Below are positions 1 to 39,570 of a stretch of 64,000 nucleotides of DNA, piece by piece (within the stretch, counting starts at the first letter, position 1; every line of letters begins with the position of its first letter). This stretch comes from Nannocystis radixulma (GTDB lineage Bacteria; Myxococcota_A; Polyangia; Nannocystales; Nannocystaceae), in assembly GCF_028369095.1 (NCBI RefSeq), contig NZ_JAQNDN010000024.1, positions 217,350 to 281,349 of the forward strand. Direction: 5' to 3'. Both the position numbers and the translations under genes were made by a program. Below the pieces are notes generated by a model. It saw only the letters and a list, made by a program, of their open reading frames with translations, searched no databases and was not told the origin of the DNA.

Positions 1-401
1 CGCCGGCCCGCCATCGCTCGCTGTTCGACGGCTGGCAGGGCGACGCGCTGGCCGAGGGCGCGCCGTACCTGGTCGAGCTCGGCGCGGCGCCGCACCCCGA
101 GCTGGTCGACGACCTCGTGCTCGAGGGCTGGCACACCGAGGCCGAGCGGCGCGACGGCGACGGCGGCTGGGCGATCTTCCTCTCGGCGCCGGACGGGCGC
201 GAGTTCGAGGCCGTGCGCCGCCACCTGCGCAAGTTCCTCATGGTCGAGCTCGGGCGCGAGAAGGTCTACTTCCGCTTCTACGACCCGCGGGTGCTGCGGA
301 CCTTCGTGCCGACCTGCACGCCGACCGAGCGGCGCGAATTTTTGGCCGACCTGGCCTGGCACATCACCTGTCCTCGAGGACTCCTGACCTTTCGGACATG
401 A
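1..401 (+). CDS. DUF4123-family protein (type VI secretion effector adaptor, Tap/Tec-like), 5-prime truncated by the window edge
   Basis: An open frame runs from position 3 (…SLFDGWQGDALAEGAPYLVELG…) into ORF 117..401. The sequence has the DUF4123 hallmarks, including the FRFYDPRVLR motif. It lies directly upstream of a DUF2235/Tle1-like effector. The last ~13 codons overlap a copy of the CATG-decamer repeat. Confidence 0.6.
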   Translation, partial: PARHRSLFDGWQGDALAEGAPYLVELGAAPHPELVDDLVLEGWHTEAERRDGDGGWAIFLSAPDGREFEAVRRHLRKFLMVELGREKVYFRFYDPRVLRTFVPTCTPTERREFLADLAWHITCPRGLLTFRT

Positions 402-410
402 CCTGAGATG
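361..410. repeat. CATG-decamer repeat copy (GGACATGACC plus degenerate neighbours) spanning the DUF4123 stop and the next start
   Basis: cacATCACCTGTCC…cctttcGGACATGACCtgagATGTTC. Confidence 0.4.
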
Positions 411-812
411 TTCAAGATCCGCCCCAACCAGGCCGACGCGCTCGCCGAAGACGACCTCATCCGCCGGATCGAGGCCTGGCTGCGCACGCGCCACCCGGCG
501 CAGGTCGCCGCGATCGCGCCGGAGGACCTGCGGGCGATGATCGTGCACTGCTTCGGGGTCGCGCGCTCGTACGGGTTCTTCACCGAGCGGGCGCTGTTCA
601 CCTTCGTGATCGACATGCTCGCGGTCGGGCCGTGCTTCCACCTGCAGCCGAAGATCCAGGCGATCCTCGCCGACGCGCGCGCGGGCGAGGAGGACCGGCT
701 CGACCGGATCGTCGACGACGTCGACGACGCGTCGTGGGACGAGGCCGGCGAGATCACCGACAAGGTGGCCTACTGGGACGACGTGCTGGCGCAGGCGCGG
801 GGGAAGGCCTAG
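408..812 (+). CDS. hypothetical protein (134 aa) inside the T6SS effector cassette
   Basis: Clean ORF with host-like codon usage. It starts 7 nt after the DUF4123 stop. I recognise no domain. Confidence 0.5.
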   Translation: MFKIRPNQADALAEDDLIRRIEAWLRTRHPAQVAAIAPEDLRAMIVHCFGVARSYGFFTERALFTFVIDMLAVGPCFHLQPKIQAILADARAGEEDRLDRIVDDVDDASWDEAGEITDKVAYWDDVLAQARGKA

Positions 813-815
813 GCG

Positions 816-1230
816 ATGGCGAAGGCGGTCGCAGCCGGCGCGCGCGGCGAGGCCCAGGCGTTCCCGGCCAGCAAGCCCGGCGCGAGCTGCCCGTGCCAGC
901 AGCTGCACCGCCAGCTGCGCGCCGGGGTGTTCTTCGACGGCACCAGCAAGGACAAGGTCAAGGACGAGCCCAAGGGCGAAGTACGCCAGCGGCGGCGCGG
1001 TGCTGACGGCCCCGGGCAGCCCGTATCTGGCCGAGCAGGCGGCGTTCTTCAAGAAGTACATCCACGTGTCGTCGTCGGAGGAGAAGAGCAACTGGATCTT
1101 CCTGTCGCCCTACGCCACCGCCAAGTATTACCTCGACCCCAACCGGCCGCAGTCCGGCGGCAAGCGGGCCAAGATCACGCCGAAGCGGTTCCGCCTGACC
1201 GCCGAGCCGCCCGAGTTCGAGTGGGATTGA
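816..1230 (+). pseudogene. Remnant of a Tle1-like (DUF2235) effector, with an internal deletion and a +1 frame shift
   Basis: ORF 816.. encodes MAKAVAAGARGEAQAFPA…GVFFDGTSKDKVKDEPKGE. ORF 1000..1230 encodes …TAPGSPYLAEQAAFFKKYIH…FRLTAEPPEFEWD. These match the first ~55 and last ~75 residues of the intact downstream gene at 1305..2534. The ~260-aa catalytic core with the GxSxG motif is missing, and the two pieces are in different frames. Confidence 0.7.
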
Positions 1231-1231
1231 C

Positions 1232-1300
1232 GAGCATGGGCGCCGGCTTTGATTTGAACTTACAGACATGTCCAAATGGGCATGTCCGAAAGGATGGGTA
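1232..1300. repeat. CATG-decamer array (AGACATGTCC, GGGCATGTCC; 14-bp phase) between the Tle1 remnant and the intact Tle1 gene
   Basis: CATG at 1267 and 1281, 14 bp apart. The reverse strand reads FRTCPFGHVCKFK, the same peptide-like string as the array at 4084. Confidence 0.6.
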
Positions 1301-37005: not shown

Positions 37006-37008
37006 ACA

Positions 37009-37479
37009 CTAGCCGCGCAGGACCCGGGCGAGCACGCCGAGGCCCATGTTGGCGGTGTTGCAGACGATCATCACGACGCCGATCCACCAGAACCGCCGGC
37101 GCACCGCCGGTAGCTCGTCCTCGCGGGCGAACACGCGGCGCGGCCACAGCGTGAAGCTGACGTGGAGGAACAGCGCCAGCGAGATCAGCAGCAGCGCGAC
37201 CTTGACGGCGACCAGCCACGACCACGGGGCGGCGGTGTCCCGGTAGGCGAGGGCGAGGGCGACGCCGCTGGCCACGATCGCGGCGATGCCGGCGAGGACC
37301 TTGTAGCGGGCGCCGTGGACGACGCTGAAGATGAAGTCCTCGAACTCGGTGGCGCGGGTGAAGAACCGCTCGGCGCGCGGGTGGAGGATGAACACGCTGA
37401 ACACCATGGCGCCGATCCACACGCCGCCGCCGAGGACGTGGACGGCTATCGGCACCGCGCCCGCGATCGCCGTGCTCAT
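37009..37479 (-). CDS. small integral membrane protein with 4 predicted TM helices (156 aa)
   Basis: Strongly hydrophobic with host-like codon usage. Confidence 0.6.
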   Translation of the reverse strand: MSTAIAGAVPIAVHVLGGGVWIGAMVFSVFILHPRAERFFTRATEFEDFIFSVVHGARYKVLAGIAAIVASGVALALAYRDTAAPWSWLVAVKVALLLISLALFLHVSFTLWPRRVFAREDELPAVRRRFWWIGVVMIVCNTANMGLGVLARVLRG

Positions 37480-37605
37480 GGCGGCGCGAGCCTATCACGC
37501 GGCGACTGCGGGGGGGCGCTGCGAGAGAGAAAGTGTCGAGCGCAGGGGGCGAGTCGCATGGTGTAAGACACCCTCGGGGCGTCGTGTCCGCTGCCCGCGT
37601 TGCGC

Positions 37606-39201
37606 TCAGAACAGCGGGATCGGCGGCTTGCCGGCGATCTGATCATAAAAGACCCATTGTTTCTCGCCGAGTCCGAGCTGGCCGTCGACGCCGTTTCCCC
37701 AACAGCGCAGGTTGCCGTCGACCATGATCGCGCACATGTGATGGTCGCCTCCGCCGACCCGCTGGACCGATCCCGGCAGCGGGACGTCCGGCGGCGGCAT
37801 CTCGCCCGGTTCGTCGCCAGTGTGGGCGTCCCCCGACTTCGCGTCGCCCCAGCAACGGAGTTTGCCGGTGTCCATCCGCACGCAGGTGCGCAGGAATCGG
37901 CTCACCAGCTGAACTCCGATTCCGCCGAGGTCGACGGCCGGCGGCGGCATGTCGCCGGGAAAAAGGCCGCGATCCAAGGTGTTCCCGGCGCCGAGCGCCC
38001 CGTATTCGCCGTTACCCCAGCACCTGACCGATCCGTCCATCAGCAATGTGCACACCATGCTGTGGCCGGCGCCGAGCTGGGCTACCGGTGCGCCGACCAG
38101 CACCGGCGGCGTGGGGAGCTCGCCGGGCTCGTCTCCGCGATTTTCGCCCATGCCGTCAGCCTGGCCGAGGCAGCCGGCGCTGTTCTCGCCCCAGCAGCGA
38201 ACCTCGCCACCCGCCCGGGTGACGCAGTTGAAGGTATAGCCGGAGCTGATGCTCTCGATGTCGTCGCCGACCTGCGCGGGCGGGGGCGGCATTTCGCCCG
38301 GCTCGTCGCCGATGTCCTCGGTATGGCCGAGGCCGAGCTGGCCGAAGGCGTTCCCGCCCCAACAGCGCACCTCGCCGGTGGCGAGCAGGGCGCACGTGTG
38401 TAGCCACCCCGCGCTCAGCGCCACGGCGGATCCATCCAGCTGAACGTCGGGGGGTGGCATTTGTCCCGGTTCATCGCCGACAGGATCGGTATGACCATAG
38501 CCGAGCTGGCCGTAGGTGTTCTCGCCCCAGCAGCGCACCGCGCCGTCCTCGAGGCGAGCGCAGGTATGAGAGTATCCGGCGGCGATCTCGACCACCTTGC
38601 CGCCGAGGTCGAGATCGGGCGTCGGCATCTCGCCGGGTTCGTCGCCGAGGGCGTCGGTGTGGCCGTAGCCGAGCTGACCGGACGGGCTTCCGCCCCAGCA
38701 CTTGACGGCCCCGCTGCCGAACAGCACGCACGTGTGCAGATGGCCGGCCTGAACGTCGAGCAGCGTCGGTCTGCAATCGTCCTCGCAGCCGTCGTGGGGC
38801 GTCGCGTTGCCGTCGTCGCAGAGCTCGTCGACATCGACGATGCCGTCGCCGCAGCTGTCGGGTCCGGTGGTGGTGGTGGTGCCGGTGGTCTCGAGGTCGA
38901 GCGTGGTCGAGCCGGTGCTGGTCGTCGATTCACCGACGCCCGTCGTGCCGGTCATCGCCGGGTCGGTGGTGCCGGTGGTCGGAGGTCCGGAGGTGCTGCT
39001 GTCCGTGGTCCCGGGCGCGGTCGTTTCTGTGGTCTGGCTGCTCGTGCCGGTCGGTACCGGCCCGGCGGTCTCCGTGGCGCTCGCGGCGGTCGACGTGTCC
39101 GTCGCCCCGGAGGTCGTCGCCGTGGTGCCGCTCGTCGCGGTGGTCTCCTGGCCGCCCTGACAAGCGAGCAAGCACAACACGCTGATGAGTCCGCGCTTCA
39201 T
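37606..39201 (-). CDS. RCC1-repeat lipoprotein with an N-terminal Myxococcus Cys-rich repeat (531 aa)
   Basis: MKRGLISVLCLLACQG lipobox. CGDGIVDVDELCDDGN. Seven or more repeats of HTC.L..G.V.CWG.N..GQLG.G. Confidence 0.75.
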   Translation of the reverse strand: MKRGLISVLCLLACQGGQETTATSGTTATTSGATDTSTAASATETAGPVPTGTSSQTTETTAPGTTDSSTSGPPTTGTTDPAMTGTTGVGESTTSTGSTTLDLETTGTTTTTGPDSCGDGIVDVDELCDDGNATPHDGCEDDCRPTLLDVQAGHLHTCVLFGSGAVKCWGGSPSGQLGYGHTDALGDEPGEMPTPDLDLGGKVVEIAAGYSHTCARLEDGAVRCWGENTYGQLGYGHTDPVGDEPGQMPPPDVQLDGSAVALSAGWLHTCALLATGEVRCWGGNAFGQLGLGHTEDIGDEPGEMPPPPAQVGDDIESISSGYTFNCVTRAGGEVRCWGENSAGCLGQADGMGENRGDEPGELPTPPVLVGAPVAQLGAGHSMVCTLLMDGSVRCWGNGEYGALGAGNTLDRGLFPGDMPPPAVDLGGIGVQLVSRFLRTCVRMDTGKLRCWGDAKSGDAHTGDEPGEMPPPDVPLPGSVQRVGGGDHHMCAIMVDGNLRCWGNGVDGQLGLGEKQWVFYDQIAGKPPIPLF

Positions 39202-39518
39202 GTTTGAAGTGAGCCATGGTTCAACGCTCGTTTGCGCGCCCTCGGCCTCCGATCGCACGTTTCGCGGCGCCGTCGCGGCCTCAATCCGTGCGCGCCGGTG
39301 ATGGTGGGTCGCCGCGTCTTGTCATGCCCGTCCTCTCGCGCGTCACGGCGCCACGCACGAAGGTCGGCCGAATGCCGCGCTCACGCCGATCGATTCGCCA
39401 TTCCCTCGCCGCCCCGACCACCGGGCAGGGTTCGACGTGAGGGCACCTGGAACGCCAGGTCGACGACGGCCCTTTCGGCCGCTCTGCCAGTGACGAACCG
39501 CGAGCGGGGCTGGCTGAA

Positions 39519-39570
39519 AAGACATGACCTTTCACCAGTTCTGATCATCATGTCGTTCAGAACATGTTCA
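39519..39570. repeat. CATG-decamer cluster (AGACATGACC, ATCATGTCG, GAACATGTTC)
   Basis: Direct reading. Lies in the long intergenic region between two divergently transcribed genes. Confidence 0.45.

Follow-up and report, generated by a model that had tools for sequence, protein, structure and literature searches.

Gene ends in Nannocystis carry a genus-restricted, apparently undescribed family of palindromic repeat arrays on a 14-bp lattice

The window, by which we mean the whole 64,000-nucleotide stretch of Nannocystis radixulma DNA analysed here, contains about 12 arrays of short palindromic repeats, each of 1-5 units and spread over 1.2-39.6 kb; none was found from 40 to 64 kb. The 14-bp unit consists of a near-palindromic decamer, RRRCATGYYY, and a free 4-nt spacer. 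The sites are listed below; they are unstranded except for the hairpin, the signs in brackets give the strands of genes, cores are CATG unless another tetramer is named, and z refers to RNA folding.

1264..1287: two-unit array AGACATGTCC-aaat-GGGCATGTCC (cores 1267 and 1281; z = −3.98) in a 74-bp gap from a gene (stop 1230, +) to a Tle1-like gene (start 1305).
4085..4150: five-unit array (cores 4088-4144; z = −2.2 and −2.95) filling a 95-bp convergent gap between a histidine kinase gene (stop 4075, +) and another gene (stop 4171, −); conserved in SCPEA4 and pusilla.
7430..7481: four-unit array (cores 7433-7475; z = −2.69) beginning 25 bp past the stop of a HEAT-repeat gene (7405, +).
7527..7714: three isolated spacer-centred dyads CGTGTCTCGAAGGYCAGGTC without CATG cores, starting at 7527, 7585 and 7695; of these, SCPEA4 and pusilla have kept the first two.
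13850..13915: five-unit array (cores 13853-13909, the middle one AATG; z = −5.31 on the − strand) in a convergent gap, abutting the stop of gene 13916-14659 (−) and lying downstream of the canonical terminator of the + gene.
14806..14815: single perfect decamer GGACATGTCC (core 14809) within a longer palindrome CTCTCgGGACATGTCCgtGAGAG, following the stop of a BNR-repeat gene (14836, −) by about 20 bp; conserved in 3 species.
16075..16098: two-unit array GGAGATGTCC-tcgg-GGACATGTAC (cores 16078, GATG, and 16092), lying some 140 bp past the stop of gene 16241-17596 (−) and conserved in both SCPEA4 and pusilla.
16289..16326: three lattice CATG cores (16292-16320) in the C-terminal MYXO-CTERM-like coding tail of gene 16241-17596 (−), a doubtful, atypical member of the family; it shows no excess RNA folding (z = +0.34), and the gene is absent from SCPEA4 and pusilla.
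18041..18064: two-unit array CGACATGCTC-tttt-AGACATGTCA (cores 18044 and 18058; z = −3.08) in a divergent gap, an exception to the placement at 3' ends.
21421..21472: array in the STPK-PEGA intercistronic gap (cores 21424, 21438 as CAGG, 21452 and 21466), conserved in 5 species.
21502..21553: array (cores 21505 as CGTG, 21519, 21533 and 21547 as CAGG) immediately after the STPK stop codon (21554-21556, −).
35578..35671: array in a convergent gap, the kinase gap (cores 35581 and 35595, then, after a 42-bp gap, 35637, 35651 and 35665 as CAGG), between a kinase gene (stop 35573, +) and a small ORF (35687-36007, −); the orthologous site is occupied in 7 species.
35572..35601, − strand: conserved hairpin GGACATGGCC-UUCG-GGCCATGTCC followed by U4-5, formed by two units of the preceding array.
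39520..39569: single unit (core 39523) and a two-unit array in another register (cores 39549 and 39563), both within a divergent gap, where they precede a DUF1993 gene by about 190-230 bp.

A dispersed extragenic family with exact 14-bp phasing had been proposed from the sequence-only reading, and the family is real. The motif RGRCATGYCY occurred 8 times in the window against 1.05 expected, a count reached in none of 100 dinucleotide shuffles. CATG-CATG distances peaked at 14 bp (19 pairs), 28 bp (8), 42 bp (8) and 56 bp (5), where about 1 pair is expected per distance (246^2/64000), and nearly all other distances between 4 and 100 bp gave 0-3 pairs, with a maximum of 5. Enrichment and phasing extended to other loci: in 480 kb of Nannocystis DNA we counted 257 CATG pairs at 14 bp, 141 at 28, 89 at 42 and 44 at 56, over a background of about 8. 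When the search was fixed on the flanks only (GGRNNNNYCC pairs 14 bp apart), the core was CATG in 34 of 40 cases, so that its conservation is not circular.

Several details of that reading required correction. It had counted 15 or more sites, where about 12 are real, and many copies of the perfect decamer, which occurs only twice in the window (14806 and 21449). The sites at 1232 and 28553 are off the lattice and doubtful; at the latter the CATG cores stand 15 bp apart and an ORF begins at the first ATG. The units at 39519 are real, but they do not form one lattice, since core 39523 and the pair 39549/39563 differ in register and lie 26 bp apart. The N-terminus MRSWTCP is probably not translated: orthologues are annotated with 333 aa, a length that fits initiation at the ATG within the last unit (GGCC-ATG-TCG, window 21426), and the unit with core 21424 likely supplies the PEGA start codon on the − strand. 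The statement that a 14-bp period has no helical meaning also needs qualifying, because three units make 42 bp, four turns of B-DNA, which brings every third unit to the same side.

The family is restricted to the genus. A scan of 185,579 species returned 112 loci, among which 35 were heterogeneous arrays, all from Nannocystis, the remainder being plain 7- or 14-bp tandem repeats. Arrays were present in a lineage with 77% Nth identity, and none was found in 20.6 kb from each of two Myxococcota MAGs (72% and 66% Nth identity; one labelled Nannocystaceae). For every array that could be compared, 3 to 7 species had it at the orthologous position. Between radixulma and pusilla the cores had diverged by 4.3%, the flanks by 16.4% and the spacers by 36.6%; the roughly eightfold slower evolution of cores than of spacers at orthologous sites shows purifying selection on each unit.

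The concentration at gene 3' ends and in convergent gaps noted from the window held in the larger sample. Among 116 arrays, 54 lay in convergent gaps, 36 in tandem gaps and 5 in divergent gaps, with 16 nominally in coding DNA, and the density per kb of gap was 2.2, 0.92 and 0.17 for the three kinds of gap, respectively. Arrays in tandem gaps mostly lay 0-30 bp past the upstream stop codon, and many arrays occupied a whole convergent gap. At loci not chosen for arrays, 32% of convergent, 11% of tandem and 7% of divergent gaps carried one; array-free convergent gaps had unique GC-rich hairpins in their place. The decamer frequency was 0.745/kb in intergenic and 0.086/kb in coding DNA, the latter being about chance. 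By extrapolation, a genome would hold about 2,000 arrays.

Seven arrays in convergent gaps or just after stop codons had RNA fold z-scores from −2.2 to −5.3, and adjacent units were more complementary than random unit pairs (z = 3.9). Perfect 10-bp inverted repeats made up 9.8% of adjacent pairs against 1.6% of random ones, and among the best pairs 9% had a palindrome that continued into the spacers on its flanks, where chance would give 1%. Most neighbouring pairs, however, were like random units in complementarity (3.13 vs 2.92 of 6), and hairpin covariation is thus not a general rule. It was seen at one locus: in the orthologous alignment of the kinase gap from 7 species, 98.3% of cells were paired, 3 pairs had changed on both sides (compensatory), and the covariation score was 0.181 against 0.084 when shuffled, with 0/500 shuffles as high. 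The hairpin at 35572..35601, of which 24 nt are invariant in the 7 species and which was the top terminator-like site within its half of the window, is a predicted canonical intrinsic terminator of the small ORF 35687-36007. No general T-run was found after the arrays, a T-rich tail being seen in only 3 of 44 near-perfect unit pairs, and, oriented by transcription, G·T mismatches were not significantly commoner than A·C ones (34 vs 23).

Our leading explanation, which we hold tentatively and at somewhat less than even confidence, is that the arrays are a Nannocystis-specific, REP/BIME-like family of repetitive extragenic palindromes with an architecture of its own, marking gene ends through hairpins. 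The arrays would be transcribed as 3' UTRs or intercistronic RNA, in which neighbouring units would fold on each other, leaving 4-nt loops and stems of 10-12 bp, or at times as much as 18 bp; since each arm is a palindrome, transcripts from either side would form the same hairpins. Such hairpins may punctuate transcription units by terminating or attenuating read-through, and may shield the upstream mRNA from 3' exonucleases, and a minority of arrays would have gained a U-tract and become canonical intrinsic terminators. Some arrays lie within operons or in 5' regions, overlapping a start codon, where a terminator would be odd. Hairpins alone do not explain the near-invariant CATG and the rigid 4-nt spacing, which implies an additional sequence-specific reader, perhaps a methylase or some protein with DNA or RNA as its target.

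A second explanation, possible though on balance unlikely, makes that reader the whole story: the arrays would serve, as double-stranded DNA, as a platform to which a dimeric protein binds sequence-specifically to mark gene ends; each 14-bp dyad would take one dimer, and every third unit would face the same side of the helix. This protein might act as a roadblock terminator, as an insulator, or by docking gyrase or a nucleoid protein that relieves positive supercoils between convergent genes, the gaps in which enrichment is strongest, and hairpins would be incidental. E. coli BIME-2 binds gyrase, and the MetJ and omega repressors bind abutting tandem boxes. The anatomy of the units fits this. 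They are better described as a lattice of alternating half-sites, RGRCA/TGYCY-N4-RGRCA/TGYCY, than as decamers: array ends are inner half-sites, the lattice runs without indels through 1 to about 10 units, its register survives decayed units, and the arrays are strand-symmetric. Units stand exactly 4 bp apart, intervals of 3 or 5 being rare, even though the spacers lack a strong consensus and diverge so fast between close species. Apart from the consensus, units are mutually independent, those within one array being no more alike than those from different arrays; to judge from their sequences, the units of one array did not arise recently from one another and have no master sequence. An invariant core of 4 bp, R/Y-degenerate flanks, rigid spacing with unconstrained spacers and terminal half-sites together give an information profile that looks more like a protein-binding motif, such as that of a transcription factor, than a structural RNA. 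Against a protein platform, no candidate protein is known, nor is a general DNA-roadblock terminator system in bacteria, and it has no need for the excess of inverted repeats, the spacer-extended palindromes or the compensatory changes in the kinase gap.

It is less probable still that the arrays are selfish, REPIN-like non-autonomous mobile elements without host function, spread by a REP-associated tyrosine transposase or similar and persisting only at sites that tolerate insertion without harm, namely past stop codons and in convergent gaps. Their extragenic, high-copy, 3'-end, promoter-avoiding distribution is what purifying selection against harmful insertions would leave, the units are palindromic with some inverted doublets forming long hairpins, and one local duplication in N. 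exedens carries an array. The family is lineage-specific and vertically inherited, as REPIN populations are described to be (bioRxiv 10.1101/2021.07.10.451892; PMC3116915). On the other hand, there is no master sequence: copies have about 10 bp in common and no more, their spacers lack a strong consensus, and units resemble one another no better within an array than between arrays; the slow evolution of cores points to selection on each unit. Insertion presence or absence between orthologous loci, which would have indicated mobility, gave no clean case among the arrays comparable between species. The units lack a 5' GTAG, a search of 2.9 million viral contigs turned up no arrays, and no RAYT-like ORF was found in 520 kb, although this last is weak evidence, the DNA sampled amounting to about 4% of a genome. 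Operators for a global dimeric transcription factor in promoter regions, another early suggestion, are highly improbable, since in spite of the abutting palindromic boxes, which recall MetJ metbox arrays, and of two window arrays in divergent gaps (18041 and 39520), placement at 3' ends, often filling promoter-less convergent gaps completely (2.2/kb), and the scarcity in divergent gaps (5 of 116 arrays; 0.17/kb) rule out ordinary operators of this kind.

The hairpin-array reading is best placed beside REP/BIME of Enterobacteria, a likeness that was proposed at the outset and stands as regards the niche, though not as membership of the REP/RAYT family proper, given the missing GTAG, master copy and sampled RAYT. 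Both are high-copy, extragenic, lineage-specific imperfect palindromes, located behind stop codons, in convergent gaps and within operons and seldom in promoter regions, and both cluster as units of alternating orientation with fixed-length linkers. REP/BIME roles include mRNA 3' protection, attenuation, and gyrase or IHF binding. The Nannocystis unit is far shorter (a 10-bp palindrome and a 4-bp spacer against about 35 bp), has a rigid 14-bp period, a CATG core and no sequence similarity to REP, and its copies share only a motif of about 12 bits, unlike the whole-element likeness of REP. With the REPIN-RAYT system (Bertels and Rainey 2011, PMC3116915) the family shares inverted doublets able to form long hairpins, extragenic location and vertical persistence in a lineage; it differs in having no master-sequence population and no conserved spacer, in the purifying selection on each unit, and in that no more than about 8-10% of neighbours are true inverted copies.

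Neisseria DUS and Haemophilus USS are likewise short, lineage-specific, hugely over-represented motifs, often in inverted pairs downstream of genes that form terminator hairpins; unlike the Nannocystis decamer, which is at chance level in coding DNA and forms phased arrays, they are not palindromic and are enriched inside genes too. The ribbon-helix-helix operator arrays (MetJ metboxes, omega heptads) also consist of 2-10 abutting, short, degenerate boxes at rigid spacing, but they are local promoter operators, whereas the Nannocystis arrays are dispersed at gene 3' ends. Intrinsic (Rho-independent) terminators place a GC-rich hairpin after the stop codon, which 35572-35601 (−) with its U-tract fits fully; they share no sequence among themselves, most Nannocystis arrays are without a U-tract, and one array sits beside a separate canonical terminator (13794-13826). 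The literature searched gave no match to the family, in line with the initial impression that it is not a described element, and it is apparently new. Literature matches for GGACATGTCC were mainly papers on the p53 response element, none of them on bacteria; the p53 half-site RRRCWWGYYY is identical in consensus to the Nannocystis decamer. That site belongs to a eukaryotic transcription factor, and we treat the likeness as coincidence.

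The dispersed family of CATG-centred decamers proposed in the sequence-only reading proved to be real. In the window, whose G+C content is ~70%, 8 matches to RGRCATGYCY were observed where 1.05 would be expected, a count not reached in any of 100 dinucleotide shuffles. The decisive statistic for the array family is the spacing of the CATG cores: 19 pairs lie 14 bp apart, 8 lie 28 bp, 8 lie 42 bp and 5 lie 56 bp apart, while nearly all other distances from 4 to 100 bp hold 0-3 pairs, with a maximum of 5. The same phasing was seen beyond the window, where 480 kb of Nannocystis DNA contained 257 CATG pairs at 14 bp, 141 at 28, 89 at 42 and 44 at 56 against a background of ~8. 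When the window was read in the 14-bp register, ~12 arrays (runs of near-palindromic RRRCATGYYY units joined by free 4-nt spacers) of 1-5 units each were found within 1.2-39.6 kb, and degraded cores (AATG, GATG, CGTG and CAGG) remained on the lattice. The earlier figure of 15 or more sites was thus too high, sites 1232 and 28553 being off-lattice and doubtful, and the perfect palindrome said to recur in many copies, GGACATGTCC, occurs just twice in the window. Tandem Repeats Finder detected fragments of only two of the window's arrays, because the array units are too divergent. One CATG pair 14 bp apart, at 20824/20838, lies inside the PEGA-domain gene and has counterparts in the compared Nannocystis loci (L113 of N. 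exedens, 20966; L116 of Nannocystis sp. SCPEA4, 20893; L117, 19670; L119, 22025). It is kept in all species because it is coding, and was rejected as an array member, being a chance look-alike.

No array was found at 40-64 kb of the window when this part was read in the same register. The stretch 40000-64000 is array-free despite several convergent gaps there according to our own gene calls; the G+C content goes down to 61-67% at 54-60 kb, and the genes beyond the GMC oxidoreductase are different in the other Nannocystis species compared. These last 24 kb may be accessory or a recent acquisition, in which arrays have not arisen.

The consensus of the unit is nnRRRCATGYYYnn. When only the flanks were used for conditioning (GGRNNNNYCC pairs 14 bp apart), the core was CATG in 34 of 40 cases, and 4 of the 6 other cores were one base off CATG; the way in which units were found thus does not account for the conserved core. 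The half-sites RGRCA and TGYCY are sharply and equally enriched at spacings of 0 (RGRCA directly followed by TGYCY) and 4 bp (TGYCY-N4-RGRCA), while spacings of 3 or 5 are rare. At the positions just beyond an array only the inner half-site is kept (...TG-YCC on the left, GGR-CA... on the right), and therefore the array is best described as a run of alternating heptads. The spacers are without strong consensus; CGAA/TTCG accounts for 12% of them and tetramers containing GAA/TTC are common. Direct-repeat identity of units is no higher within one array than between arrays, and the arrays are neither recent tandem duplications nor a cloud of copies around a master sequence. A simple tandem repeat or VNTR was rejected because the unit divergence within an array equals that between arrays, unlike in the 7/14-bp repeats of other taxa.

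Excess complementarity is restricted to immediate neighbour units. Perfect 10-bp inverted repeats make up 8-10% of adjacent units (1.6% of random pairs), and the palindrome extends into the flanking spacers in 9% of the best pairs (1% by chance), with arms of at most 18 nt. Mirror units at a separation of two or more showed no excess complementarity, and the nested "palindrome of palindromes" hinted at by some minimum-energy folds was abandoned for this reason. Downstream of the 7430 array, isolated spacer-centred dyads CGTGTCTCGAAGGYCAGGTC lie at 7527-7546, 7585-7604 and 7695-7714 in the window; they have the form half-site-N4-half-site, with CGTG/CAGG replacing CATG, and the first two (7527-7546 and 7585-7604) are conserved in SCPEA4 and N. 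pusilla. The family thus seems to include single dyads that lack CATG, which searches relying on CATG overlook.

When 185,579 species genomes were scanned for runs of four CATG cores with 14-bp periodicity, at least 112 loci matched. Among the matches listed, 35 came from seven Nannocystis genomes, and all the others were plain 7- or 14-bp simple tandem repeats from unrelated taxa, cyanobacteria among them. An uncultured lineage with 77% identity in the Nth protein carried 2 arrays in 12.6 kb, and two remoter Myxococcota MAGs (Nth identity 72% and 66%; one labelled Nannocystaceae) carried none in 20.6 kb each. Phage or mobile-element origin was rejected, as 2.9 million viral contigs contained no such arrays. 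Loci not selected for array presence gave 26 arrays per 155 kb, or ~1 per 6 kb, from which we extrapolate to roughly 2,000 arrays per 12-Mb genome.

The arrays were placed relative to genes called by our own GC3-based gene caller. Among 116 arrays, 54 are in convergent gaps, 36 in tandem gaps and 5 in divergent gaps, and 16 are nominally coding, in agreement with the REP/BIME-like placement (extragenic, at gene 3' ends and in convergent gaps) suggested previously. The array density per kb of gap is 2.2 for convergent, 0.92 for tandem and 0.17 for divergent gaps, and at the loci not selected for arrays 32%, 11% and 7% of such gaps, respectively, hold an array. Many convergent gaps consist of little besides the array, and in tandem gaps most arrays begin 0-30 bp past the upstream stop codon. 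The alternative of operator arrays, also raised previously, does not survive in the promoter sense and was rejected on placement, because divergent gaps hold only 5 of the 116 arrays and most arrays follow stop codons. The decamer density is 0.745/kb in intergenic and 0.086/kb in coding DNA (8.7-fold), the coding figure being close to chance, and CATG sites with RRR..YYY flanks constitute 2.4% in coding DNA and 13.7% in intergenic DNA against 1.6% by chance. A DNA uptake sequence or a HIP1-like genome-wide motif was rejected because of this chance level in coding DNA; DUS/USS are over-represented genome-wide, coding DNA included. The array-free convergent gaps of the window carry unique GC-rich hairpins instead. 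A canonical intrinsic terminator, GCGGCCCGGACCGGCGGTCCGGGCCGC followed by T6, lies at 13794-13826 (+) for the trypsin-like protease gene, just upstream of the 13850 array, and here a canonical terminator and an array share one gap.

We compared orthologous loci from six other Nannocystis species with the window. The array in the gap between the kinase gene and a small ORF (35578-35671) is at the same site in 7 of 7 species, and the arrays of the STPK-PEGA gap (21421-21472 and 21502-21553) are present in all five species compared, where the ATG of the last unit (GGCC-ATG-TCG) is the start codon that fits the annotated orthologue length of 333 aa. SCPEA4 and N. pusilla share four further arrays (4085, 7430, 13850 and 14806) with the window and also have counterparts of the two at 16075 and 18041. 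Between N. radixulma and N. pusilla, the divergence is 4.3% in the cores, 16.4% in the R/Y flanks and 36.6% in the spacers, compared with 9.7% in the 60 bp (partly coding) on each side of the arrays. Such slow cores and fast spacers imply purifying selection on each unit, while the spacers drift freely on an indel-free lattice, and selection unit by unit in turn means that the arrays are functional and not decaying junk. The sequence-only reading had looked to such loci for presence or absence that would indicate mobility; every comparable array sits at a shared site, and the compared loci showed no array that is cleanly inserted in one species and absent from another.

Two rearrangements were noticed at these loci. 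A segment of ~1.9 kb at ~16105-18035 of the window, carrying the gene 16241-17596 (-), is missing from the orthologous gap of SCPEA4 and N. pusilla. Pfam matches of this gene to DUF5122 and disintegrin are weak, that to disintegrin falling short of the curated cut-off. It has a MYXO-CTERM-like tail (...GCSCSQGHGARDMLLAAAVLLALPRRRRR), and its C-terminal coding tail includes three lattice CATG cores. The insertion (16.1-18.0 kb) lies between two older array remnants, with neither a target duplication nor any link to the arrays. N. exedens (L113, 20222-20350) has a local duplication carrying an array: the end of the STPK gene (15-20 bp), together with the first array units (…gagatcggtggctga-GGCCATGTTC-cgaa-GG…), is found in two copies ~95 bp apart. 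The annotated start of the N. exedens PEGA gene is probably too far upstream, inside the arrays.

As RNA, seven arrays in convergent gaps or just past stop codons folded better than their shuffles (z = -2.2 to -5.3), and three arrays in 5' or coding position folded no better than shuffles. In the seven-species alignment of the kinase gap, analyzed by RNAalifold and an explicit pair count, 98.3% of the cells are paired; in 3 pairs both partners have changed, namely the pair that closes the loop, which is GC, CG, UA or UG, and two pairs that extend the stem. The covariation score at this one orthologous locus was 0.181 against 0.084 when shuffled, and none of 500 shuffles scored as high. The distal hairpin, GGACATGGCC-UUCG-GGCCATGTCC followed by U4-5 (35572-35601, -), is invariant in 7 of 7 species and, with the GC-rich hairpin and U-tract of an intrinsic terminator, is the best terminator-like site in its half of the window. 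The oriented arrays as a whole are not followed by a T-run and the downstream T content is not raised; a T-rich tail accompanies only 3 of 44 near-perfect pairs, which does not support the arrays as general intrinsic terminators. Mismatches in the oriented arrays were G·U (G·T) in 34 cases and A·C in 23, with no significant excess.

Among known systems, the arrays resemble REP/BIME elements in being high-copy, strictly extragenic and imperfectly palindromic with the ability to form stem-loops, and in lying at 3' ends, intercistronically and in convergent gaps but not in promoter regions. REP/BIME elements are bound by gyrase, IHF or Pol I and stabilise upstream mRNA. The arrays differ from them in having no relation to the enterobacterial or pseudomonad REP consensus, no 5' GTAG and no Rfam match. 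Their placement, palindromy, lineage specificity and alternating-orientation clusters with fixed linkers nevertheless put them in the REP/BIME functional class. They are also similar to MetJ/omega operators, with abutting tandem boxes and rigid spacing (half-site spacings of 0 and 4 bp), but differ in that they do not adjoin promoters. We know of no REP family with this architecture of a 10-bp palindrome, an invariant CATG, an indel-free 14-bp lattice and free spacers. Literature searches for repeats like these in Nannocystis or myxobacteria found nothing, and the decamer matched mainly papers on p53 response elements.

In our leading, still tentative, explanation, arrays at gene ends are transcribed, and their hairpins punctuate transcription. 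Such hairpins would serve both convergent transcripts, because each arm is palindromic; they would terminate or attenuate read-through and protect 3' ends, and a few of them would have become canonical terminators. The features that hairpins alone leave unexplained (an invariant CATG, spacing of exactly 4 nt, free spacers and half-site ends) look like a binding motif, and this motif-like information profile suggests some sequence-specific reader. The same features favour the main rival or complement, a less probable one, in which a dimeric factor would use the arrays as a double-stranded DNA platform and serve as a roadblock, an insulator or a dock for gyrase or a NAP. Also in its favour, three units make 42 bp, that is, four helical turns, and the earlier remark that 14 bp is not a helical repeat does not make the lattice helically meaningless. 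We regard it as rather unlikely that gene ends are marked for a dedicated Nannocystis factor, which would read the CATG lattice with one dimer on each 14-bp dyad, wrap with a repeat of 42 bp (4 turns), and stop or insulate transcription from both sides or recruit a topoisomerase at roughly 2,000 gene ends of a 12-13-Mb genome. If true, this would be a bacterial counterpart of the protein-roadblock terminators, TTF-I Sal-box arrays and mTERF.

Selfish REPIN/RAYT elements are an improbable source of the arrays. The hallmarks of REPIN-RAYT systems are a single-copy RAYT (Y1 transposase) gene flanked by repeats and near-identical copies around a master sequence, whereas the arrays have no master-sequence population and even their spacers share no strong consensus. 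A REPIN is a long hairpin of two inverted REPs; in the arrays, only 8-10% of neighbouring units are perfectly inverted, and a few have arms reaching 18 bp. Selection acting on each unit and the orthologous position of every comparable array also argue against such elements; as a weaker point, tblastn with an approximate query, E. coli RayT, found no match in 520 kb (~4% of a genome). Returning to the arrays as marks of gene ends, they provide Nannocystis, whose genomes are among the largest bacterial ones (11-13 Mb), with a genus-wide, computable gene-end marker, found by extrapolation in a third of convergent gaps. They account for false ORF extensions and wrongly assigned start codons in annotations of Nannocystis, a simple DNA or RNA bait could be used to pull out a candidate sequence-specific reader, and the arrays could serve myxobacterial engineering as bidirectional terminator or insulator parts.

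The window contains other features. Downstream of the CopD-like gene there is a 53-bp tandem repeat (36677-36982; 6222-6712 in L116) with 5.8 copies of 98% identity in N. radixulma and 9.3 copies of 89% identity in SCPEA4, and none in the corresponding region of N. exedens. This VNTR varies between species and has no relation to the CATG lattice. At gathering thresholds, Rfam matched only two tRNAs in the window and no known RNA family over the arrays. The tRNA genes and a neighbouring protein gene are as follows.

26418-26485, minus strand: tRNA gene (Rfam), intergenic
30495-30561, minus strand: tRNA gene (Rfam), intergenic
30641-33361, minus strand: 906-aa protein with major-vault-protein shoulder and repeat domains (PF11978, PF17795)

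The two tRNA genes have DUF4215/fibrinogen-like genes and the vault-protein gene as neighbours. Judged from its domains, the 906-aa protein is a predicted eukaryote-like vault-protein homologue, and its 90%-identity cluster comprises (near-)full-length members of 889-906 aa from at least 7 Nannocystis species.
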